From IMG/VR virus record IMGVR_UViG_2737471859_000003: DNA of 25,277 nucleotides; one strand, 5' to 3'. Below are positions 5,908-20,564 of the stretch, piece after piece. Both the position numbers and the translations under genes were made by a program. The DNA is from a virus. Its lineage: Duplodnaviria > Heunggongvirae > Uroviricota > Caudoviricetes. The notes beneath the pieces were generated by a model. That model did not search any database. It worked only from the letters and a program-made list of their open reading frames with translations, and was not told the DNA's origin. Numbering within the stretch: position 1 is the first letter of the stretch; every line of letters begins with the position of its first letter.

Positions 5908-6227
5908 TCGTCCTTCTCCTTCACCCTGCGATTAAAGGCCGCAATAACCTTGTCGCGTGCTTTCTCTGCGCCCATAAAACCGATTGATGCGCCGATAAAC
6001 GTCACGGCATCTTCAGGAAACCCGAAGAAGCGCAACGACCCGGCCACGGCCATGGCAAGAACGCCGCACGCCAGCGATCCCGTTACGGTCTGAACCAGTG
6101 TTCGTCCGTCATAAAGACTCATCAGCGCGGAAATGCTGACTGCCGCGCCTACTGCATACACCGTTGGCAGGTGGTCAAAGAGCCACGCAATAACCTGCTC
6201 TGTGATCCCTGTTTGAATGGTGCTCAC
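5904..6227 (-). CDS. Holin (about three predicted TM segments, charged C-terminus)
   Basis: The track ORF 5904..6446 reads through gpX in another frame. The plausible start is GTG ~6227, 5 nt after GGGGGGAG, giving ~107 aa with three hydrophobic stretches and a KARDKVIAAFNRRVKEKDE tail. Start uncertain. Confidence 0.65.
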   Translation of the reverse strand: MSTIQTGITEQVIAWLFDHLPTVYAVGAAVSISALMSLYDGRTLVQTVTGSLACGVLAMAVAGSLRFFGFPEDAVTFIGASIGFMGAEKARDKVIAAFNRRVKEKDE

Positions 6228-6229
6228 TG

Positions 6230-6436
6230 CTACTCCCCCCACAACTGAATCATTTCTCGTTTCTTCTTCTCCGGCTCCGGCATCTCCACTTCCTGCCCGG
6301 CGTCCAGAAATACCTGTTGACAGAGTCCGGGGTTGGCATCCAGCACCTTTTCGGTGACGCCCTGCGTCGTGCCGTAGTACCGGAAACAGAGCGAATCCAC
6401 GGTGTCGCCTTCCAGTGCCTTCACTTTCATCAGCAC
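6230..6436 (-). CDS. X: Tail protein X, P2 gpX-like
   Basis: 68 aa (P2 gpX is 67 aa); lies between L and the lysis cassette as in P2. Confidence 0.8.
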   Translation of the reverse strand: MLMKVKALEGDTVDSLCFRYYGTTQGVTEKVLDANPGLCQQVFLDAGQEVEMPEPEKKKREMIQLWGE

Positions 6437-8947: not shown

Positions 8948-9784
8948 TCAGAAGTCAGCCAGCTGGTCGGAGGCTGCACCTGTTGCGGTGAACCGGTTCT
9001 GCGGATCGCCGTCCTGCGTGCGCAGTTTTTCCTTCAGTGCTGCCAGCTCTGTGGTCAGTGACGTAATTTTCTGGCGGTCCTGCTGATGGCGGGTTTCCAG
9101 CACATTAAAACGGTCGATAATGTCGGCCTGTGACGTTGCGACGCCTTCCACCGCTTCCTGAATACGGGAAAAACTGGCGTCATCCGCTTTGCGGCCACGG
9201 CCAATAATCCCCATTACGCGGTTAAACCACTGGGTGCCTTCTTCCTGGCGTTGTTCTGCCATTTCGATGATTTCAGACTCGATGGCTTCGGAGATAAGCG
9301 GCGCTTCACCCTGGACACTGTTGAACGTCATTACCGCCTGACGTTGCTGTGCCGTGAATTTCAGGCGCTCAGTGCCCAGGCTTGCCGGGGTGTCGGTCAT
9401 CGCCAGCCCGACCAGATAGGCGCGCCCGTTAACGGAGAACTGCGGGTGCAGTTCGATACTGGAATAGATTTTCTTGCCGTCCGCGACAAGCTGCTTCATG
9501 CGCTCGGTCGGTTCGATTTCTGCATACAGCGCAGTACGTCCGGCCAGCGGACCTTCCGTAATGTCTTCCGTACTCAGTGCGGTGACATCGCCCATTGCGG
9601 AAAATTCGCTTGACGGGCATGGCGAGAGATAGTGCTCAACGTTCACGCGGGCAGCGTAAACATCCGGGTTGAAGTTCTCGGCGGCTTCACGCAGATGCAC
9701 CGGACTGATTTCACGGCCATCAACAGTTGATCCGGAGACAGCCACGCGAAACTTTTTGCGGGATGTCTTTTTTTCATTAGCCAT
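8948..9784 (-). CDS. O: Capsid scaffolding protein, P2 gpO-like
   Basis: ORF frame 8948..9817; ATG at 9784 (MANEKKTSRKKFRVAVSGSTVDGREIS) aligns with the P2 gpO N-terminus and follows GAGGGG. Confidence 0.85.
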   Translation of the reverse strand: MANEKKTSRKKFRVAVSGSTVDGREISPVHLREAAENFNPDVYAARVNVEHYLSPCPSSEFSAMGDVTALSTEDITEGPLAGRTALYAEIEPTERMKQLVADGKKIYSSIELHPQFSVNGRAYLVGLAMTDTPASLGTERLKFTAQQRQAVMTFNSVQGEAPLISEAIESEIIEMAEQRQEEGTQWFNRVMGIIGRGRKADDASFSRIQEAVEGVATSQADIIDRFNVLETRHQQDRQKITSLTTELAALKEKLRTQDGDPQNRFTATGAASDQLADF

Positions 9785-9938
9785 AGTTTTTGCCCCTCTG
9801 ACTGGTTCTTCAGTCATGATGGCAAAGCGTAACAGGCTGATACAAAGGGCTTTTGTTGTAAGAAAACGGCCAGAACAGGGGGTTAAGGAGAACAGTTTCG
9901 CGCGCGGGTAATCTTCCTGTAATTACTCAGGGGGAGCA
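9785..9938. promoter_or_regulatory. Divergent late-promoter region between the O...H operon (minus) and the P-Q operon (plus)
   Basis: 154-bp non-coding gap between divergent starts, at the position of the Ogr-dependent P_O/P_P promoters in P2. I could not identify a clean TGT-N12-ACA activator site. Confidence 0.5.
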
Positions 9939-11690
9939 ATGATTCAGGACGCTTTTGTGCGCCAGCGTGCGCGGCAACTTTACTGGCAGGGTTATCCGCC
10001 CGCAGAAATATCACGTCTGATGGGAATAAACCCGAACACGATTTATGCGTGGAAAAAACGTGACCAGTGGGATGAAACGCCACCCGTGCAGCGTGTCACG
10101 CAGTCCATCGATGCGCGCCTCATCCAGCTTACTGAAAAACAGAATAAAACAGGCGGTGACTTTAAGGAAATAGACCTGCTGACCCGGCAGCTTAAAAAGC
10201 TGCATGATGGCCAGCCGGATGTGATGGCCGCAGGAAAGAAAGGCCGGGCGAAAAAACTCAAAAATCATTTCACGCCGGAACAGATTGCCGCACTGCGGGA
10301 AAAAATCATCAGCAGGCTGGAGTGGCATCAGCGTGGCTGGTTTGACTCCCTTACCCTTTGCAGGGAAGCCGGGATACGTAACAGGATGATCCTGAAATCC
10401 CGACAGATTGGGGCGACCTGGTATTTTGCACAGGAAGCACTGCTGATGGCGCTGCGTGACGATGTGGCGCAACCTTACCAGCGTAACCAGATTTTTTTGT
10501 CTGCGTCGCGTCGTCAGGCGTTCCAGTTTAAAAGCATTATTCAGAAGGCCGCGGCTGAAGTTGATGTGGAGCTGAAAGGGGGCGATAAAATCATCCTCTC
10601 AAACGGCGCAGAGCTGCATTTTCTCGGCACTTCTGCTGCGTCGGCACAGTCCTATACGGGCAATTTTTATTTTGATGAATTTTTCTGGGTCAGTCGCTTT
10701 GCTGAACTGCGCAAGGTGGCTGGCGCGATGGCAACCCTCAGCGGACTGCGGCGCACCTACTTCTCCACGCCATCCACCGAAACGCACGAGGCATACGCCT
10801 ACTGGAACGGCGACCGCTGGAACGAGAAAAAGGCCGCGCATAAACGCCAGCATTTTTCTGTGGACTGGAAAACGCTGCATAACGGGCTTATCTGCCCCGA
10901 CCGGACGTGGCGGCAAATTGTCACGCTGGAAGATGTGGTTAATCACGGCTGGAAACACACCGATATCGACGAAATTCGTGATGAAAACACCGAAGACGAG
11001 TTTCTCAATCTCTATATGTGTGAGTTTGTCCGCGAAGGGGAATCGGCATTTAACCTGAATATCCTGATTGGCTGCGGCGTTGACGGGTACGACGACTGGA
11101 AAGACTGGAAACCTTTTGCTCCCCGCCCGATGGGGAATCGTCCGGTATGGATTGGGTATGACGCAAACGGCAGCAGCGGCAACGGCGACAGCGGCGCTGT
11201 GTCCGTGGTGGTTCCTCCGGCTGTTCCTGGTGGCCGTTTTCGAACGGTGGAGACGCGACGCGTTCAGGGGCTGGAGTTTGAAGAACAGGCCAGAGTCATT
11301 GAAGAGTTCACGTATCGCTACAACGTGGAACACATCGGCATTGATGTGACGGGCGGGAACGGGGAGGCTGTTTATCAGATAGTGAAACGGTTTTTCCCTG
11401 CTGCTATTCCGTACACCTTCACGCTGTCATCAAAACGGTCGCTGGTACTGAAAATGCTGCAAATAATGCGTGCCGGGCGGTGGGAATACGATCGCGCCGA
11501 ACGCGAGCTGGTCGCGGCCTTTAACGCCGTGCGTAAGGTGAAAACACCGGGCGGCTTTATCACTTACGAAACGGACCGCGCGAGGGGGATCAGCCACGGC
11601 GACCTTGCGTGGGCAACCATGCTTGCTGTCATTAACGAACCGATTGGCGGCGAAGGAGAAAACGAGCGTTTCACGGTTATGGAGTTCTGA
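9939..11690 (+). CDS. P: Terminase large (ATPase) subunit, P2 gpP-like
   Basis: 583 aa (P2 gpP ~590 aa); GGGGGAG Shine-Dalgarno before ATG 9939; stop overlaps the Q start by 1 nt (TGATG). Confidence 0.9.
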   Translation: MIQDAFVRQRARQLYWQGYPPAEISRLMGINPNTIYAWKKRDQWDETPPVQRVTQSIDARLIQLTEKQNKTGGDFKEIDLLTRQLKKLHDGQPDVMAAGKKGRAKKLKNHFTPEQIAALREKIISRLEWHQRGWFDSLTLCREAGIRNRMILKSRQIGATWYFAQEALLMALRDDVAQPYQRNQIFLSASRRQAFQFKSIIQKAAAEVDVELKGGDKIILSNGAELHFLGTSAASAQSYTGNFYFDEFFWVSRFAELRKVAGAMATLSGLRRTYFSTPSTETHEAYAYWNGDRWNEKKAAHKRQHFSVDWKTLHNGLICPDRTWRQIVTLEDVVNHGWKHTDIDEIRDENTEDEFLNLYMCEFVREGESAFNLNILIGCGVDGYDDWKDWKPFAPRPMGNRPVWIGYDANGSSGNGDSGAVSVVVPPAVPGGRFRTVETRRVQGLEFEEQARVIEEFTYRYNVEHIGIDVTGGNGEAVYQIVKRFFPAAIPYTFTLSSKRSLVLKMLQIMRAGRWEYDRAERELVAAFNAVRKVKTPGGFITYETDRARGISHGDLAWATMLAVINEPIGGEGENERFTVMEF

Positions 11691-12736
11691 TGAGCAGAAA
11701 AAATAAAAAAGTGCGCATGAGTTCACGCATTGATCTCGCTGATGCGCTCAGGAAAGAATCATCGCTCAGTGCATTCACATTTGATGGTCCTTATCGCCTG
11801 ACCGGGCATGATCTGCTGGACAATATGTACTGTGCTGATAACGGGCGGTGGTATGAAACCCCGGTGGACTGGTACGGTCTGGCAAGAGCTGCCCGGCAAA
11901 CGTCCTGGCATCAGTCTGCGCTTTACTTTAAGCGCAATGTATTGCTCGGTTGCTACATCCCGCACCCGCTGCTTTCCCGGCAGGATTTCTCGGCGCTGGC
12001 GCTGGACTGGTTTGTGTTCGGTAACGCATTCCTTGAGCTTCGGAGCAATATGCTCGGCGAACCACTTAAATTACGGCACGCACTGGCGAAATACATGCGA
12101 CGCGGAAGCGATCTTGAATCATGGTGGTATGTGCAGGATGGCAAGGACGCGTTTCAGTTTCGCCCTGGCAAAGTGTGCCACCTGATGAATCCGGACATTA
12201 ACCAGGAAATTTACGGCATGCCGGAATATCTTGGCGCATTACTCTCGGCCAGCCTGTCTCATTCGGCGGACATGTTCAGAAAACTGTATTACGACAATGG
12301 ATCCCACGCCGGGTGCATCATCTACATCGGTGCAGCGCAGGTAAACCGCGAAAGCATGGACTCCCTGAAAGAAACGTTACAGGGTGCGCGTGGTGGTGGT
12401 GCGTTTAAAAACGTGCTCATCCATGCGCCCAACGGGGGCAAAGAGGGGGTGCAAATTTTGCCGTTCCAGCAGATCACCGCAAAGGATGAGTTCATGAATG
12501 TTAAGGCGGCATCCCGTGATGATGTGCTGGCTGCGCACCGCGTTCCGCCGCAACTGATGGGGGCGATGCCGGGCGAAAAAAGTGCGTTTGGTGATGTGGA
12601 GAAGGCAGCGCGGGTTTATGCAATTAACGAGCTGATGCCCGTAATGGAGGCCATGAAGCATATCAATGACTGGCTTGGCGAAGAGGTGATCCGTTTTAAC
12701 TCTTATGCTCTTCTTGATGAAAAAACAGCCCCGTGA
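11690..12736 (+). CDS. Q: Portal (capsid portal) protein, P2 gpQ-like
   Basis: 348 aa (P2 gpQ ~344 aa), directly downstream of P. Confidence 0.9.
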   Translation: MSRKNKKVRMSSRIDLADALRKESSLSAFTFDGPYRLTGHDLLDNMYCADNGRWYETPVDWYGLARAARQTSWHQSALYFKRNVLLGCYIPHPLLSRQDFSALALDWFVFGNAFLELRSNMLGEPLKLRHALAKYMRRGSDLESWWYVQDGKDAFQFRPGKVCHLMNPDINQEIYGMPEYLGALLSASLSHSADMFRKLYYDNGSHAGCIIYIGAAQVNRESMDSLKETLQGARGGGAFKNVLIHAPNGGKEGVQILPFQQITAKDEFMNVKAASRDDVLAAHRVPPQLMGAMPGEKSAFGDVEKAARVYAINELMPVMEAMKHINDWLGEEVIRFNSYALLDEKTAP

Positions 12737-12752
12737 TGGGGCTGTCCTTTTT
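12721..12752. terminator. Bidirectional rho-independent terminator shared by convergent Q and the 174-aa gene
   Basis: AAAAA-ACAGCCCC-GTGAT-GGGGCTGT-CCTTTTT: an 8-bp GC-rich stem with a 5-nt loop, flanked by an A-run and a T-run. The Q stop codon lies in the loop. Confidence 0.7.
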
Positions 12753-13275
12753 ACCAGAGTTGAACCATTTTCTGGGTGCCGTCAGGCTTGAGATTATCAA
12801 TTTCAGAGAGAACGTAATATTGAATGGCTTCACAAACGGTGGTGTAGGGTGAATTACCTTCTTTAAGTGGCACGATATTATTATTAACGCGAACCTGTAT
12901 TTCATCGTTATACATTGCGATCGAAACAGGAGTGTGTACGAACGCGACTTCGCCAGGTGTGTCGTCAACCACCGTTTCAATACTAAAAGTCAGTTTTCGC
13001 TCATCATTGCTGCCTCGTGCTTTGGGGGTAGCGGCAGGGATCTGGGATAAAGGCATTCTGCGAAATCCTTCGGCTGCTTCCAGTCCACATGAAACGTAAT
13101 GCTGGCGATTACCGTCGCTATCTGTCCAGGTCTGTGATGGCAGCTCCAGCGAGATTTCATAAGCATCAACAATGCCCTGGGCAAGGCGTACAAGCGGGGT
13201 CAGATCTTCATTGCGGCGAAAGCTCTCCTTTACCTGCTCCCGTTTTTCTCTTAACTGCTTGTAATTAATGACCAT
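12751..13275 (-). CDS. Hypothetical protein (174 aa), cargo gene of unknown function
   Basis: ATG at 13275 (MVINYKQLREKREQVK...) 8 nt after GGAGG; open for 174 codons; lower GC than flanking structural genes; no family recognised. Confidence 0.6.
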   Translation of the reverse strand: MVINYKQLREKREQVKESFRRNEDLTPLVRLAQGIVDAYEISLELPSQTWTDSDGNRQHYVSCGLEAAEGFRRMPLSQIPAATPKARGSNDERKLTFSIETVVDDTPGEVAFVHTPVSIAMYNDEIQVRVNNNIVPLKEGNSPYTTVCEAIQYYVLSEIDNLKPDGTQKMVQLW

Positions 13276-13376
13276 AAGACAGCCTCCATTGATTTCTTTG
13301 CTCGTATTTTGCACTTATGAAGTATGGTCGGCAAGGTGCCGTATCGCTGACGCGCTTCGCTTGTCTGCTGCTTCGC

Positions 13377-13401
13377 CGGGGCATAAAAAATTTATGCCCC
13401 G
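13377..13401. repeat. Perfect 25-nt palindrome CGGGGCATAAA-AAA-TTTATGCCCCG
   Basis: Read directly from sequence; 11-bp arms with a 3-nt centre, ~100 bp upstream of the 174-aa gene start. Function unknown. Confidence 0.5.
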
Positions 13402-13806
13402 ACTCTCCAGCTCCTGTATCAATCAGATAATTTCACGACGCCTTCCAGCTTATTGTCATCATCGACGGTCAGGCTCTTACGCAATCCCGCCGTGCTGACT
13501 GCATGTTCTCGTCGCCTCAGTGCGATTTTGACGGCCTTATCAGTCACCCCATCAAATCAAAAGCCCTCACGTATTTTTCACGCTCAGCGAGAGAAAGACA
13601 GCCATTCCGTTGTGTCGCTGCGACATCGTTCAGGGAATGCTGTTTACCCCCTGAAACGCGGGCTGTTCCCCCGTCACCTGCGCGCAGAAAAAGCGCGTTT
13701 TTTTGTGCACGCACGGATCCTTGACCGATCCAGCCGCCATGCGGGCCGGAAGGGCAAAAAGTCGTTCAAAAAAATTGTGCAAATTTGTGCGCTTTTGTGC
13801 AAAGAA

Positions 13807-13829
13807 ATGCCCCTCAAATTGAGGGGCAT
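13807..13829 (-). terminator. Putative terminator hairpin just downstream of the S8 protease gene
   Basis: Perfect palindrome ATGCCCCTCAA-A-TTGAGGGGCAT about 15 nt after the stop at 13844, followed on the minus strand by TTCTTTG. Confidence 0.5.
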
Positions 13830-13843
13830 TATGTCTTGAAGGA

Positions 13844-16069
13844 TTACGAACGAATAGGAATTGATGTTTGCGGTTGAATTGGCACGAGCACCTGATTATA
13901 AGTACGTAAAATTTCGTTATACAGGTCTTGGTGCTTTGATGCCTTAATGGTAATTATAAGAGCATACTTGATTTTTTCTGCCTTATGGCTGGCTATGCTT
14001 GCACCGGCCTCACGAGCGTTATAATGAATGTCAAATACAGGATTTTTTAGAGTTGAACCTAGCATGTTCTTCGAATTATGTAAGACGGTCTCCCATTTGC
14101 CCATGTCAGAACGTCGCTCACTTTCAGTTGAATATTTGGCCAGTTCAAAGAATCCCTTGGTTTCAGCATTTTGTTTTCCGTCTTTGATTTTTGAATCATT
14201 TGGCCGGAATGTCACTTCCAAACCAGCTTTTGTATAGGAAGCTGGGTCTTGTGGATCAGTGGTTGTTGCATAACAGAAAGTTGCCGCTAAGTTTATTCTA
14301 CCTTTCAAGCCACCTTCAGGTATTGGAAGAGGAGCGCGTAAGTATTTTCCTGGTTTCAATTCACCTTGGTAGACGATACGGGCAACACCATCAGGGCTGA
14401 CTATAATGTCGTTCAAGTCTTCAGGAAGTTTTCCCCAGCCAACTTCTGTACAAGGATGATCAAGCTGTTTTGACGCATGAATTAACAAAGCTTTGATTGC
14501 TAGTAGGCTCAAATCGTTCCCTAAAATTGCCCGAACACCAACAGCTGCTCGTAAGGCGTAAGGAGAGGCAAAGCTTGTTCCTAGCTGGGGTATGATTACA
14601 GGCTTCTTACCTTTACCTAAAACATGAAAGTACTCGTCTGTGTCACCACCAAACGCAACTAAATCCGGTTTCATCACGCCAGGACTTCTGCCTGGCCCAA
14701 TGGCGCTATATGGTGCTCGTTTCCATTCCGTATCATTAACTGTATCACAAGCACCAACAGCAAGAGCATTAACGCAATCGGCTGGTACTTGAATTCTTGC
14801 ATTACCAGACTTGCGATCCATTTCTCCATTGTTGCCAACAGCAACAGTCATTAATGTTTCACCATCACTTAACAAATCATCAATAACGGAAGTCCATGCA
14901 TGAACTTCCGTATCTTCAATTGGTAGGTCTGGACCTAAACTTAGATTGATAAACTGATACTGGCGAGACAACAATACCTCTTCAATAAAGCCCAAAGTTC
15001 GATATAGTTCCAGCGGATCTTCTTGGCAGGTCTTGTTGTCCAAAACTCTTAAGTTATCAATATAAGAGTATGGTCTTTTCGCTTCCGATTTATTACTTAT
15101 TGGTCCAAATAAAAAGGCTGAAGACACAGCTAAACCATGCTCTAAACCGTCTGGATCATCCTCTGCATGATCGTCCAAAACTCTATAGGATTTTAACCAT
15201 GGCGATATAGCGTGCTCTGATGGTAAACCACCATCAAGAATCGCAACTTTTATTTCTGAAGATACGGGGCCCTCAGCAGGCAATTTACACTGAGCTAAAG
15301 GACCGTAGTTCCTTTGTATTGGTCTAATCCCACGCAATCTTGGAACCGGTCTTATTACTCGTACAAATGTAAATTTCGCAAGCTTACTAATAGTAATTCT
15401 ATCGGCCTGGATTGGCACGAACCATAATGTACCAGCGGTAAAAGCTAATGAAGTATGTACTTTGATGTTCAAATTTGATGCAAACTGAACAAATTGTTGC
15501 TGAACCAAGTCTTGTTCATTATCTGGCAGTAAATGAACACCAACCTCAAAATACGAAGAATCCTGCTCACCAATGGTAATAATACGCTCTTCGGGTAAAT
15601 AGGCATCGAACCGTTCTATGCGTGCAAAATCAATCGCTTCGTCAGAAAACTCTTTGAGTCCTGACACCCAATGAGGTAACTCTTTGAAGGATTCTCTTTT
15701 ACCAGCAACAAACATTTGTGTCGTAGTTACTTCTGACACAGTAACTTTTCGCTTCCAGCTTTGAGGCGTAATTTTTACCGTCCTGCTGCCAATAGACGTT
15801 AACCCGGTAGACTTAAGCATTTTTGCAGGAAAAAAAGAGCGTGCAATATAGCTCGGATTCAACGTCAACTTAGCCACAGCATAATCATAAGGACATGCCT
15901 GACTGGGTAAATCATCAAAATTTTCTATAGTAGATGCAATTTGCGGCAATAACCGTTGTTTCGATTCGTAAAGAGAATAAACCTCAGCTTTTCCGGGCAC
16001 TCTTTTAGGACCAGGAATATCGCTGGTTAATAATTCGCCGCGTCCAATCAGAAAATTAGTTTTCGCCAT
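13844..16069 (-). CDS. Subtilisin-like (peptidase S8) serine protease, 741 aa, with N- and C-terminal extensions of unknown function; tentatively IetS-like
   Basis: Catalytic triad motifs in subtilase order: Asp in VAILDGG, His in EHGLAVSS, Ser in GTSFASP. AAGGAG Shine-Dalgarno 5 nt before the ATG. AT-rich codon usage unlike the phage backbone. Confidence 0.8.
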   Translation of the reverse strand: MAKTNFLIGRGELLTSDIPGPKRVPGKAEVYSLYESKQRLLPQIASTIENFDDLPSQACPYDYAVAKLTLNPSYIARSFFPAKMLKSTGLTSIGSRTVKITPQSWKRKVTVSEVTTTQMFVAGKRESFKELPHWVSGLKEFSDEAIDFARIERFDAYLPEERIITIGEQDSSYFEVGVHLLPDNEQDLVQQQFVQFASNLNIKVHTSLAFTAGTLWFVPIQADRITISKLAKFTFVRVIRPVPRLRGIRPIQRNYGPLAQCKLPAEGPVSSEIKVAILDGGLPSEHAISPWLKSYRVLDDHAEDDPDGLEHGLAVSSAFLFGPISNKSEAKRPYSYIDNLRVLDNKTCQEDPLELYRTLGFIEEVLLSRQYQFINLSLGPDLPIEDTEVHAWTSVIDDLLSDGETLMTVAVGNNGEMDRKSGNARIQVPADCVNALAVGACDTVNDTEWKRAPYSAIGPGRSPGVMKPDLVAFGGDTDEYFHVLGKGKKPVIIPQLGTSFASPYALRAAVGVRAILGNDLSLLAIKALLIHASKQLDHPCTEVGWGKLPEDLNDIIVSPDGVARIVYQGELKPGKYLRAPLPIPEGGLKGRINLAATFCYATTTDPQDPASYTKAGLEVTFRPNDSKIKDGKQNAETKGFFELAKYSTESERRSDMGKWETVLHNSKNMLGSTLKNPVFDIHYNAREAGASIASHKAEKIKYALIITIKASKHQDLYNEILRTYNQVLVPIQPQTSIPIRS

Positions 16070-16092
16070 ACATACTCCTTATCTATGCTGTA

Positions 16093-17214
16093 TTACATTT
16101 TTTGACTGTATTTTCTAATTGTATCCCTACTGACTCCGGTTAAGTCTGATATGGCATGCTGGGATAATTTAGAATTTCTTTTTAGAGTAACTGCAATTTC
16201 TTTACGTTCATTCCTGTCTAATTCTGATAAACCATCTTTAATGAACGACCCAATCAACTCTTCATCTGAGGAAATACCTAAAGCGACCGAACGTCGGAAT
16301 TTGTTGATAGAACGCTCAATATTACTAAAAGATTCATTTTTGAACATAATAGCCAGTAGATCTATCCAACGTGCAAAAATCGCGTAGTCGGGACCTGAAA
16401 AGCGTTTAATTGCTTCTTTAATACTTTCGCTATCTGGCTTCTCAAAATTGAGCACTAAATCAAAACGTCTCCATAGTGCTGGATCAATCAACTCAGCGAA
16501 GTTAGTTGCAGCAAGTAACAAACTAGAAGACGGCCATTCGTCAACCTCCTGGAGTATTACGGTAACAAGTCTTTTTAATTCTCCAACATCAGAATCATCA
16601 CTTCTCTTTTTGGCGATTGAATCAATTTCATCTAACAGAAGAACGCACGGCCCTTTCTTCGCAAAATCTAGAGCTGCCCGAAGGTTATTTCCGCTTTTGC
16701 CCAGATAGCTGCTCATTACTGCCGTTAAATCAAGAACGTAAAAAGGAACCCCTAATTTCTGAGCTAACCAGCTTGCCGTAAGTGTTTTACCTACACCCGG
16801 AGGGCCAACAAAAATGGCAGAGCGTGTTGGTTGTAAGCCGAGAGTCTTGAGGCGATCGATGTGCTTCCGCTCAAGAATAATTTGATCCAGTGAGTCTTCT
16901 ATCTGACTGGACAGTAGAGGTTTGCTCACAATCTTTTCATTTGGTGCTTTAAGCAAGGTAAGCCTTGACTCCTCGTCCACAGGCATGGTTTGAGGCAGCG
17001 CTTGTTTTGGTGCGGTAACCTTACGCAGGCTTTGTGCAGGCTTTTGCGGTTTATTTCGTAGATAAAGATCAAGCTGCTCGGATAGAGCAGGCATAGTTTC
17101 CCGATATTTACGCACCAAGCGAGCGACATATAACCGAACGTCATCATACTGTTCAGTTATTACCAGTCTAACTAGTTGGGCTAAATCTGACTGAATACCA
17201 CCTAAGTCGCCCAT
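16093..17214 (-). CDS. Classical AAA+ ATPase, 373 aa; tentatively IetA-like
   Basis: Walker A GPPGVGKT, Walker B LLLDEID, sensor-1 / second-region-of-homology LLLAATNFAELIDPALWRRFD. The extreme C-terminus LSQHAISDLTGVSRDTIRKY looks like a helix-turn-helix. 23-nt gap to the protease gene suggests an operon. Confidence 0.8.
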   Translation of the reverse strand: MGDLGGIQSDLAQLVRLVITEQYDDVRLYVARLVRKYRETMPALSEQLDLYLRNKPQKPAQSLRKVTAPKQALPQTMPVDEESRLTLLKAPNEKIVSKPLLSSQIEDSLDQIILERKHIDRLKTLGLQPTRSAIFVGPPGVGKTLTASWLAQKLGVPFYVLDLTAVMSSYLGKSGNNLRAALDFAKKGPCVLLLDEIDSIAKKRSDDSDVGELKRLVTVILQEVDEWPSSSLLLAATNFAELIDPALWRRFDLVLNFEKPDSESIKEAIKRFSGPDYAIFARWIDLLAIMFKNESFSNIERSINKFRRSVALGISSDEELIGSFIKDGLSELDRNERKEIAVTLKRNSKLSQHAISDLTGVSRDTIRKYSQKM

Positions 17215-17394: not shown

Positions 17395-20178
17395 TTATTT
17401 TTTCTTCTCGCTATTGCCTTTGTCCTGCAACAGACCCGCCTTGTGACGTGCGCGTTCAGTGGTTTCATTGATTCTCTGTGCGTGCTCTGCGTCACGGATG
17501 GCGCGCAGCATGTCAGAAAGCACGGTAACGGGAGTTTTCATGGTGTTCTGGTCCTGCTGAATTGTGGATGCCAGGCGTGCAGCGGCTTCAGGGTCTGATG
17601 CCCCGAGCTGTTTCAGATAGCTGGAAACCGGGTTATGGCGGATTTCCGTGCTGTTTACGCCGTGATTACGGCTCAGGCGCTGCCAGAGCTGCGTGATTCG
17701 GCTGTCCGGTCGGGTATCTGGTTTGCGTACAATTTCAAATCCCTGCGGTGCAATGATGCTGCCGTCAACGTACAGACTGCCGCCTCGTAACAGGTGCTGC
17801 ATCTGCTGTTCACCGATATGCAGGCCGAGAGATTCGGCAGATTCCCGCCATTCTTTAGCGAGTAATTCGTGGTTATCAGGCAAAGGCCGCTGCTGTTTGC
17901 GGCTCTGTGTCCAGCTCTGCATTTCATCACTGCTGTTTTTTGCCTGTTTGTCACGAAGCGAACGCATCAGCGCCCGGCGTTCGTGCCGTTTCAGTGAGCG
18001 CATCCATTCGTTCACTTCAACGCCGTCAGGGAGCTGCGGCCACGGTGCTGGCCGTTCTTCCGGCTGTTCTGTCCCGTTGTTGTCCGTTTCCTGTACACGG
18101 GGACAGTTATTGCCACGAGTCCAAGGGGCGGCAGAGCCGCCCTGAAGGTCAAAACCATTTTCGTGGGTGCTGTCTTCCGCTTCCGGTTTACGTCTTACCA
18201 GCTTCCAGTTATCCGGGTGCGTGCACACACGGGAGGATTCCCCGATGAGTGGCGACCAGATCCCGTAAATCTGTACACTCTGTTCGCCGTAATCGTTCAG
18301 CTCATCTGCGAGGTCGTAGGCTGTGCGAATCAGGTAGTCCTTGCGCGGAACAAGTACGCCACCCTGTTTTTCAATGTAGGTGGCAAAACACCCGGCATCA
18401 GCGGCAGCAAGAACCGCATCCATTGCGTCATCCTTCAGCCGTTGCGGGCCCTCCGGGTTGCGTGCCATCTGGCTGGCAAGGCGGCGGAGTTCACGCCACA
18501 CCTGACGGGAGGGGATGCCAAAGAACTGGAACTGGCGGACCCGGTGAAGGCGCGCCCAGCCGATGGCGCGCTCCACGCTCTCGGCCATTGATTTTCCGGT
18601 TTCGTGGTCAACGCGTGGCTTGCCCGTTTTCGGGTCGATGCCATCTACGGCGCGGCTGTCCAGGTTTTTTCCGATGTAGGTCGCGATATAGCTGGTTGGT
18701 GTGCCTTTTGAGCCGTCGACATACTCCGCCTTAAAGCGCGGAGTAATATCATCGCCCAGTTCGTGACGATCTTCCTGAATGGCAATATCGCGGGTGATGG
18801 CCACGATGCTGTCGATTTCTTCCGGATGAGCAAAGACCATCATATGCCAGTGCACGGTGCCGTCATGGTGAGGCTCCACCGTGCGGATGCCATACCAGCG
18901 CAGGCCGTCGCGGTTCAGTTTTTTGCGGACCGCCGCAAAAAACGTGTTAACCAGGTAATCGCTGGAGTCGCGCATGGTGGCCCCGTTCCATTTGGGATTC
19001 GGATGACCGTTCTCCGTTGTTGCGTGGTATTTTGACGGGCAGGTGACAGTCAGAAACACCGCTTTGTCACCACGGGCTTCGGCCAGAAGTTCCAGCCCCT
19101 TCATGGTGGCCATCATTTCTGCCTTACGGTGAACCGGGTTACTTACTCCCGCGTAATACACTGTCTCGAGATCAATCGTGAACCCGTCTTCATTTTCCAG
19201 CATGAAACTTTTCAGGAAATCGCGTGTTTTCTCGCGCTGTGCGCGAAATTCACTTAATGCGTCCTGGCTCAGATAGGGTGATGTTTTTCTGGAAACCAGA
19301 CAGGCGGCGCGAAGTTGTTCTTCTCTCCACTCGCAACGTAAAAGCCACAGTTTGCGTTTCCACCATTCCGCACAGGTCAGGCGAAGGATTGCACCCGGCA
19401 GCAGTTCCGTGTCCGGTTCGTTCCTCCGGTCTTTGTCTGTTGTCAGTGCGTCATAATGCGGAGGCATGGCGTGCAGGTGTAACGCCATGCGGGCCAGCAT
19501 CTGATACGCCTTCAGCGTTACATCCATGGTCAGCTCGCCATCAGTCGCACCAAAGCCATCGCAGAGCTTTTCGAAGGTGCTGCTGAACATCGCCGCCGTC
19601 ATGGTGGCCAGCGTCTGTATCTGGTGTTTGTTGAGCTGCGGCAGGTAAAGCAAATCGTCCAGGCGTTCGCGTCCGGCAATGGAGCGATAACCCGGTGTCA
19701 GCCAGCGGCTGTCGGTGCGGTCCAGACGTCCGAATATTTTGCGCAGGGTTCCGCGTGCATAGCGTTCCGCCTGCCAGCTCTTTTTGCCTTTCTGGCGATC
19801 GGCTTCCTGTTTTTTGCGCAGGAAAGAGAGGTGGCGGCTCAGTGGTTCACGCAGATAAACAGGTAGTGCCTTTAGTGTGGCAAAGGCACGGGCTACCGGG
19901 TCTTGTTCTGTTGCCCGGCGCTTACTGATGATGCTCTGTGCCAGCTTTTCACGCTGTCCGGCTTCCTCAAGGGATGCCATGAGTTTTTTACCCATGGCGG
20001 ATTGTGCGAAAAAGGCTTCTTCCTTCGCTTCCTGTTCTTCCTGTGCCCTTTTGTCCGCCTCAAGGTAGTAACGGATGGCGCGTTGCAGGTCGGTTTCAGT
20101 TTCCTGCCTGCGCTCCGTAAATCTGGCCGGATCAATGGCTGGCCGTGGTTCATTCCAGCTCCATGCAAACTCACTCAT
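17395..20178 (-). CDS. A: Replication initiation endonuclease (rolling-circle, HUH-type), P2 gpA-like
   Basis: ATG at 20178 (MSEFAWSWNEP...) overlaps the upstream gene stop (ATGA). HUH motif in TVHWHMMVF and paired tyrosines in SYIATYIGKN, as in P2/phiX174 A proteins. ~927 aa versus ~761 aa in P2. Confidence 0.8.
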   Translation of the reverse strand: MSEFAWSWNEPRPAIDPARFTERRQETETDLQRAIRYYLEADKRAQEEQEAKEEAFFAQSAMGKKLMASLEEAGQREKLAQSIISKRRATEQDPVARAFATLKALPVYLREPLSRHLSFLRKKQEADRQKGKKSWQAERYARGTLRKIFGRLDRTDSRWLTPGYRSIAGRERLDDLLYLPQLNKHQIQTLATMTAAMFSSTFEKLCDGFGATDGELTMDVTLKAYQMLARMALHLHAMPPHYDALTTDKDRRNEPDTELLPGAILRLTCAEWWKRKLWLLRCEWREEQLRAACLVSRKTSPYLSQDALSEFRAQREKTRDFLKSFMLENEDGFTIDLETVYYAGVSNPVHRKAEMMATMKGLELLAEARGDKAVFLTVTCPSKYHATTENGHPNPKWNGATMRDSSDYLVNTFFAAVRKKLNRDGLRWYGIRTVEPHHDGTVHWHMMVFAHPEEIDSIVAITRDIAIQEDRHELGDDITPRFKAEYVDGSKGTPTSYIATYIGKNLDSRAVDGIDPKTGKPRVDHETGKSMAESVERAIGWARLHRVRQFQFFGIPSRQVWRELRRLASQMARNPEGPQRLKDDAMDAVLAAADAGCFATYIEKQGGVLVPRKDYLIRTAYDLADELNDYGEQSVQIYGIWSPLIGESSRVCTHPDNWKLVRRKPEAEDSTHENGFDLQGGSAAPWTRGNNCPRVQETDNNGTEQPEERPAPWPQLPDGVEVNEWMRSLKRHERRALMRSLRDKQAKNSSDEMQSWTQSRKQQRPLPDNHELLAKEWRESAESLGLHIGEQQMQHLLRGGSLYVDGSIIAPQGFEIVRKPDTRPDSRITQLWQRLSRNHGVNSTEIRHNPVSSYLKQLGASDPEAAARLASTIQQDQNTMKTPVTVLSDMLRAIRDAEHAQRINETTERARHKAGLLQDKGNSEKKK

Positions 20179-20564
20179 GGCTGGTATCCCGTCACGCGCT
20201 GCCACTCCTGCGAGAAGATGGCGGAAAGGCGGTTAAATTCAGCGGTGTATTCACTCAGCGAGGCACACCCGCCAGCAGTGCGATGCGCCAGCATTGCCGC
20301 AAATACGGAGGCCGGGGAGTCATAATACGCCAGCAGTGATTCGCCGTGTGGTGTCAGGCAGTGCAACGCCAGCCCGTGTGGTGTGAAATCCACGCGGTAG
20401 CAGTCGTCTACTGTGAAATAAAGGGTGTCCGCATTCTCCGGTTTTGTGGTGCGTGCTCTGTTGTCACGACCACGGATGTAGAGATCAAATAATCCCTGAA
20501 GAATGGGAGCCAGACGGGTGTCCTGTGTGCGCACCCATCTTGTGAAGTCATGAGCGTCAATCAT
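20175..20564 (-). CDS. Hypothetical early-operon protein (129 aa)
   Basis: ATG start; stop overlaps the A start codon, implying translational coupling; no family recognised. Confidence 0.55.
   Translation of the reverse strand: MIDAHDFTRWVRTQDTRLAPILQGLFDLYIRGRDNRARTTKPENADTLYFTVDDCYRVDFTPHGLALHCLTPHGESLLAYYDSPASVFAAMLAHRTAGGCASLSEYTAEFNRLSAIFSQEWQRVTGYQP

Follow-up and report, generated by a model that had tools for sequence, protein, structure and literature searches.

What is the role of a 174-aa open reading frame (ORF; 12751-13275, minus strand) that is squeezed between the portal gene Q and a known two-gene defence system, IetAS, in the IMG/VR virus record IMGVR_UViG_2737471859_000003? 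The following alternatives are considered: the ORF could encode an additional component of the adjacent defence system, it could serve the life cycle of the phage itself, or it could be an accessory gene with a function of its own, directed against other phages, against host immunity, or at the physiology of the host. The whole analysed stretch of 25,277 nucleotides (hereinafter, the window) is a part of an Escherichia coli prophage of the P2-like, P88 (Xuanwuvirus) type, its nearest phage records being PhiR44_2, vB_EcoM-569R5/705R2 and P88 relatives. We find that the ORF is near-certainly an autonomous accessory cassette (a "moron") between Q and the cos site, and that, again near-certainly, the phage can do without the gene, the selection acting on it is purifying, and it is genetically independent of IetAS. 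As to function, we describe it as an uncharacterised prophage accessory gene of the P2 cos-proximal region and a candidate phage-exclusion protein.

The gene is common. Although no defence hotspot of prophages has been studied more than the one in which it resides, its annotation has stayed "hypothetical". The analysis separates it from IetAS, defines a minimal clonable cassette of 627 bp with control signals of its own, and ties the gene to a wider family in lambdoid, P2-like and E217-like prophages.

The gene, its cassette and its control signals

A sequence-only reading of this locus had proposed a 174-aa ORF with a strong GGAGG-ATG start, and both are indeed present: the Shine-Dalgarno sequence GGAGG (13287-13283, minus strand) is separated by a 7-nt spacer from the ATG codon at 13275-13273, and is kept as GGAG in divergent homologues. 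A longer ORF of 187 aa, starting from GTG, is present as well; the ATG start is favoured, since all homologues begin with MVINY or M-x-I-T-Y (in a common notation, M-V/T-I-N/T-Y). The ORF is convergent with Q and ends 14 bp from it, as had been stated: Q stops at 12736, and the gap occupies 12737-12750.

In comparisons with alleles 94-98% identical at the DNA level, the ratio of non-synonymous to synonymous substitution rates (dN/dS) was 0.06-0.12, synonymous changes greatly outnumbering the non-synonymous ones (e.g. 24 vs 6-7). Thus, the ORF is under purifying selection and is a real gene. The possibility that it would show no conservation in relatives can therefore be set aside, as, in addition to the low dN/dS (0.06-0.12), the ORF has full-length homologues, with 46-96% protein identity in E. 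coli, Salmonella and Trabulsiella and 22-63% in a wider set. Two of the 41 copies in IMG/VR loci are split by frameshifts (L082, 5962-6524; L084, 864-1443), several shortened ORFs are present in the databases (proteins P0011-P0017), and the copy in the enterotoxigenic E. coli (ETEC) strain H10407 is partial; such split and partial copies indicate that the gene decays now and then.

The homology between the window and the phages P88 and P88_4B11 stops at approximately 12718, within the final Q codons, and restarts at 13346. In between lies the accessory-gene cassette (12719-13345), 627 bp in the window, with 13 bp in its place in P88; its bounds come from a forced single-gap alignment to P88 and from a MAFFT alignment. 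The cassette comprises the last six codons of Q and the terminator, as well as the ORF together with its ribosome-binding site and candidate promoter, and it supplies about 70 bp of upstream DNA. The portal protein ends with …LLDEKTAP in the window vs …LLDTQPTS in P88; as the last six Q codons (EKTAP and the stop) are cassette-derived, the insertion rewrote the portal C-terminus. The base composition of the cassette also deviates, with the GC content of 46.9% vs 52.8-56.3% in Q, P and gpA, and the GC content at third codon positions (GC3) of 0.46 vs 0.59-0.61 in Q and P.

The gene was found in 397 of 5426 complete E. coli genomes (~7%), in every case on the chromosome, the carrier lineages including ST131 EC958, O55:H7, O111 and ETEC. 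A query spanning both flanks matched 1146 E. coli genomes, 397 (35%) of which were occupied. Among the sampled unoccupied sites (n = 39), all but four span 686-688 bp, and sites of this length are read as empty ones. As the span is nearly the same in almost all sampled unoccupied genomes, the site is two-state and not hypervariable. The claim that this is an independent gene is borne out, given that the sampled remainder of the otherwise ~95% identical prophages lacks the ORF.

The following features of a moron were observed in the cassette: presence or absence between collinear relatives, a predicted terminator of its own and a divergent base composition. Morons were reportedly defined for lambdoid phages by Juhala and Hendrix, the lambda genes bor and lom being examples, and the lysogenic-conversion genes of P2 are tin, old and fun(Z). 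Like both, the cassette is an independent unit of a candidate promoter, a gene and a terminator situated among core genes, missing in close relatives and atypical in composition.

The hairpin terminator that Q and the ORF had been predicted to share was found at 12725-12745. It consists of nine pairs, six of them G-C, and its 3-nt loop is the Q stop codon TGA (12734-12736). The folding energy is -18.0 kcal/mol on the plus strand, that of Q, and -20.6 kcal/mol on the minus strand, that of the ORF (z vs shuffles -4.0 and -5.8, respectively; no shuffle folds equally well), with CCTTTTT downstream of the hairpin on the plus strand and TTTTTT on the minus strand. As a stable hairpin is thus combined with T-runs on both strands, a bidirectional intrinsic terminator is plausible. 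In the Salmonella-type homologue, an analogous hairpin of a different sequence is common to the portal gene and the accessory gene; the portal C-terminus of this type is similar (NSYALLEE).

A candidate sigma-70 promoter (13306-13334, minus strand) lies upstream of the gene, formed by the -35 hexamer TTGCCG (13334-13329), a 17-nt spacer and the -10 hexamer CAAAAT (13311-13306). In the 95% allele, both hexamers are unchanged and the spacer differs. In the Salmonella-type clade (60% protein identity), TTGTCT-17-CAAAAT occurs at an equal distance from the gene, while the rest of the upstream DNA is poorly conserved and gapped. The Ogr-type late-promoter motif of P2 (TGT-N12-ACA) had no match near the ORF, nor upstream of the late genes of the window, so that its absence near the ORF carries no weight. 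The view that the gene forms a separate transcription unit is supported by its own Shine-Dalgarno sequence, candidate promoter and terminator, and by the hairpins between it and IetAS. Small ORFs upstream of several family members (L016, L017, L019 and the window) were considered as a conserved partner and rejected, as they have no mutual similarity; they are probably spurious gene calls.

Relation to the IetAS system

Both IetAS genes are located on the minus strand: IetS at 13844-16069 (PADLOC, E = 6.7e-52) and IetA at 16093-17214 (E = 1e-77); they constitute a known defence system, outside the unit considered here. In the window, the ORF is on the same strand, at a distance of only 568 bp, and it could be suspected that its product is a third component or a regulator of this ATPase-protease system, as the sequence-only reading had suggested in speaking of a third partner. 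If this were the case, the gene and IetAS would be expected to travel together, and the co-occurrence analysis across prophages that had been proposed speaks against this. In the IMG/VR loci with close relatives of the gene (n = 41), the gene adjoins the portal gene convergently in all 41, and IetAS is present in only one (L052). Across cos from the gene, there are other genes in PhiR44_2 and in the strain VTB97432v, a DUF4760 gene with a hypothetical gene in EC958, and nothing comparable in an O111 strain.

The arrangement of the two units argues in the same direction. As had been noted, about 570 bp and a terminator separate the ORF from the ATPase-protease operon: the exact distance to IetS is 568 bp, and a terminator-like hairpin (13807-13830; -19.4 kcal/mol, then UUUCUUU) directly follows IetS. 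Moreover, both termini of the linear P88_4B11 record join between 13756 and 13757, within the region holding the cos site (13700-13800). Hence, cos is situated between the ORF and IetS, and therefore the ORF and IetAS occupy the opposite ends of the packaged DNA. The 19-mer of the P2 cos site was not found in the window within three mismatches. Finally, the PADLOC profiles describe IetAS as a system of two genes. With the terminator and cos between the two units, other or no cargo in the remaining prophages and the single joint occurrence among the 41 loci, we give a partnership with IetAS hardly any probability and consider it effectively refuted.

The ORF is located in the interval between gpA (17395-20205) and gpQ (11690-12736), which is the classical old/tin hotspot of P2 (Rousset et al. 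2022, PMC9122126; Vassallo et al. 2022, PMC9519451). Similarly to old and tin of P2, the cassette resides in the gpA-cos-gpQ interval; unlike them, it is on the Q side of cos. In P2, cosL is 186 bp from Q, and only these 186 bp and the terminator are found on the Q side. IetA and IetS (an AAA ATPase and an S8 protease; 13844-17214) occupy the gpA-cos side of the hotspot, and in P88 and most relatives a ParM/StbB-type partition module with small ORFs is found at this position.

The block 13346-13790 is ~95% conserved across P88-type phages and non-coding; it probably holds packaging signals flanking cos. It contains a 42-aa ORF (13419-13547, minus strand), listed in RefSeq as the hypothetical protein WP_001418074.1, and a terminator-like site on the plus strand at 13680-13698. 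A strong hairpin (GGGGCATAAA...TTTATGCCCC, 13378-13400) folds at -22 to -29 kcal/mol and has no T-run on either strand. It is about 20 bp past the Q stop codon in P88 and upstream of the cassette in the window, and might terminate transcription despite lacking a U-tract, stabilise RNA or take part in packaging.

The phrog_5091 family and its genomic contexts

The protein belongs to phrog_5091 of PHROGs v4, a group of unknown function (E = 1.4e-67, residues 1-168 of 174), and all aligned homologues (n = 58) match this and no other PHROG. No match was found in Pfam, NCBIfam or PADLOC, so the statement that the protein carries no recognisable motif stands, and the homology searches yielded no clear match to a housekeeping phage protein either. 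PADLOC-DB v2, applied to the 58 family members, gave two stray matches, in one member each (E = 0.005-0.009). An exhaustive profile search retrieved 89 cluster representatives, most of them 155-175 aa long and 22-33% identical, sharing the motifs M-x-I-T-Y-x-D-I-R; A-Y-x-x-S-L-x-L…W-x-D…G…Y-V; F-x-I-x-T-V-x-D-D-x-P; and V-C-x-x-I-K. The named members, from E. coli, Klebsiella, Serratia, Xenorhabdus, Morganella, Trabulsiella and Salmonella, are all annotated as hypothetical proteins, and the family is also present in environmental metagenomes. A profile search of genome contigs added only two loci, both from Xenorhabdus.

The protein is predicted to be a soluble alpha+beta one. It has no hydrophobic segment (maximal 19-residue Kyte-Doolittle mean 0.86; grand average of hydropathy -0.50), and neither a transmembrane segment nor a lipoprotein signal of the kind seen in SieA/SieB, Imm or Cor-like proteins was found in it; since the hydrophobic segment is lacking, a superinfection-exclusion protein of the membrane type is unlikely. 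The isoelectric point is 5.0 (family median 5.1) and the net charge about -6. A DNA-mimic anti-restriction protein similar to Ocr or ArdA was considered and rejected, as the charge is only about -6, the isoelectric point is 5.0 and there is no Pfam match. No obvious catalytic motif was seen in the protein, and most of the positions that hardly vary across the wider family carry hydrophobic or aromatic residues.

Two AlphaFold 2 models (mean predicted local distance difference test, pLDDT, of 80 and 79) are concordant and feature two N-terminal helices, an antiparallel sheet and a C-terminal helix that packs on the sheet. A Foldseek search of the predicted structure against PDB and BFVD returned nothing with E ≤ 0.001. 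The PDB sequence search matched designed helical repeat proteins (E = 2.7e-7), but this value sums three weak repeat copies, each with an i-Evalue of at least 2.4, and the family profile does not recover the match, which was thus rejected as an artefact.

The family recurs at accessory-gene sites of unrelated temperate phages. Portal-adjacent copies are found in P2-like phages of Morganella and of the Salmonella-type lineage (L007, L013). Other members are located directly after gpA, being followed by hicAB and phd-fic (L008, Trabulsiella), or after ogr, being followed by hicAB (L022); in the gap between the late antiterminator and the holin of lambdoid phages (L010, L015, L019-21, L028, L030); between the lysis genes and the downstream head and packaging genes, including a portal-like ORF (L037, L039, L041, L042, L044); and within the tail modules of E217-like myoviruses (L014, L026, L024, L031). 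One copy is 0.85 kb downstream of an EcoRII-C/Dcm gene pair (L011), and some are lone chromosomal genes (L016-18). The lone chromosomal copies favour a host-beneficial function. The divergence of the portal-adjacent copies roughly parallels that of the portal protein, yet is faster: the portal identities of 74% and 47% correspond to 60% and 23% for the accessory gene.

The members from E217-like tail clusters are in the sense orientation (L014, 8001-8474; L026, ~5968-6423; L024, 5968-6498; L031, 5968-6477). Some of them lie between a PF18352 protein and the sheath initiator, and others just upstream of the tape-measure gene, at the expected place of the tail assembly chaperone. The two hicA-hicB pairs, at separate sites of P2-like prophages, are 62-66% identical, and the directly preceding phrog_5091 genes only 28% (L008, 8001-9369; L022, 7001-8359). 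As hicAB appeared in none of the further loci screened (n = 62), it may be a co-located cargo or a module of a small sub-lineage.

Possible functions of the protein

Our tentative proposal, with a chance of being right somewhat below even, is that the protein is an exclusion or defence factor acting as a single protein, which is made in the lysogen and whose binding to a component of a competing phage or mobile element blocks that component. The gene would be transcribed in the lysogen from its own predicted constitutive sigma-70 promoter, and the soluble, non-enzymatic alpha+beta product would bind a protein of a competing phage or another mobile element, so that stoichiometric binding would block the development of that element. 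Its lifestyle would then be similar to that of Tin of P2 or TaiEcA of phi80. This reading is favoured by the priors for hotspot cargo, by the chromosomal copy and the one near the restriction-modification pair, and by the parallel that can be drawn with Tin and Tai. In the P4 hotspot, six of the eight unknown loci were protective (PMC13586616), and the gene lies, like other P2 hotspot cargo, inside the interval extracted in both P2 studies (PMC9122126, PMC9519451).

The parallel has its limits. The protein has no sequence relationship with Tin, which belongs to phrog_9821 rather than phrog_5091, and, unlike the hotspot cargo, the gene occupies a two-state site beside Q, off the hypervariable gpA side of cos. 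TaiEcA of phi80 (for tail assembly inhibition) is encoded by one accessory gene, which immediately precedes the packaging module and is expressed in the lysogen (He et al. 2024, PMC11364771). Similarly, phrog_5091 genes are small single accessory genes of temperate phages, mostly situated close to cos or to the packaging module, with other hotspots occupied as well; both families are missed by PADLOC, and the homologues within each are only 22-43% identical. In a difference from Tai, no Ati-like partner gene was seen. Homology to Tai was also considered and rejected: the 204-aa minus-strand ORF gp52 of phi80, which we take to be TaiEcA by size and position (PMC11364771), belongs to a different PHROG (phrog_5483), and hhalign gives a probability of 0.15% for the pair. 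Tai is thus the closest analogue in lifestyle, by analogy and not by membership.

Several observations weigh against an exclusion function. The candidate promoter has eight of the twelve consensus matches, under the scan threshold of nine. PADLOC holds no model for the protein, and the fold matches are too weak for assigning a mechanism. The protein (WP_000236495) occurs 167 times in Table S5 of Rousset et al. (PMC9122126) as "hypothetical", and neither its accession nor its sequence was found in their table of tested systems. The site next to Q is a plain present/absent polymorphism and no hypervariable hotspot. The gene keeps its place beside the portal gene even among distant relatives (identity of 47-74% for the portal and 23-60% for the gene), and this constancy could instead stem from a position-linked role in the life cycle of the phage itself. 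Finally, in several lambdoid and E217-like phages the gene is in the sense orientation inside late operons, and such members may be late proteins.

The last two points bring in a helper of the phage life cycle, that is, a non-essential protein linked to packaging, head or tail, such as a component associated with the virion or a modulator of its assembly, which would raise fitness in some hosts. We consider it improbable, however, as P88 and the sampled remainder of the near-identical P88-type prophages do without the gene, which is convergent to the late PQ operon, bounded by hairpins, and part of a cassette with an atypical GC content; besides, other members of the family follow gpA or ogr or lie in plain chromosomal DNA, and this scatter is hard to reconcile with a structural role specific to one module. 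The product could also act on the physiology or virulence of the host as a lysogenic-conversion factor, and not against phages: the cassette has the same architecture as bor, lom and stx, it is carried by pathogen lineages (ST131 EC958, O55:H7, O111, ETEC), and the lambdoid members are in the site between the antiterminator and the holin, where the stx genes of lambdoid phages sit. Conversely, the protein has no signal peptide or membrane segment, so that the general secretion route does not apply to it; it is similar to no effector or regulator family; and the family is also present in insect-associated Xenorhabdus and in environmental metagenomes. The probability of this alternative is about as low as that of a life-cycle helper.

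Slightly more probable, while still unlikely, is an anti-defence function, in which a small inhibitor, expressed from its own promoter upon phage DNA entry or prophage induction, would bind and neutralise a host immune protein. However, the stand-alone chromosomal copies outside any recognisable phage, as well as the copy 0.85 kb downstream of the restriction-modification pair, suit a host-beneficial gene better. Furthermore, with a net charge of about -6 the protein lacks the strong acidity of a DNA mimic, its fold matches are all generic, and P2-like phages rarely carry known anti-defence genes (28 elements; PMC13586616).

Returning to the exclusion factor, a broader and rather doubtful proposal is that phrog_5091 as a whole would be a new single-protein immunity family of temperate phages of Enterobacterales, expressed from the prophage and having a fold unseen in solved structures, whose members would block competing phages, or satellites of the same helpers of the P4 or phage-inducible chromosomal island (PICI) type, via a protein of virion assembly or packaging. 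In that case, the portal- and cos-adjacent copy, present in ~7% of E. coli genomes, would constitute an unrecognised layer of prophage defence beside the known hotspot. If the protein is an exclusion or an anti-defence factor, it would represent a new family without a matching solved fold; if it is neither, the gene would be one more well-delimited accessory gene.

Beyond the interval considered here, the window carries the replication gene gpA on one side of the hotspot and, on the other, the plus-strand portal gene Q (Pfam Phage_portal), the terminase gene P (9939-11690) and the scaffold gene O (8948-9817, minus strand).
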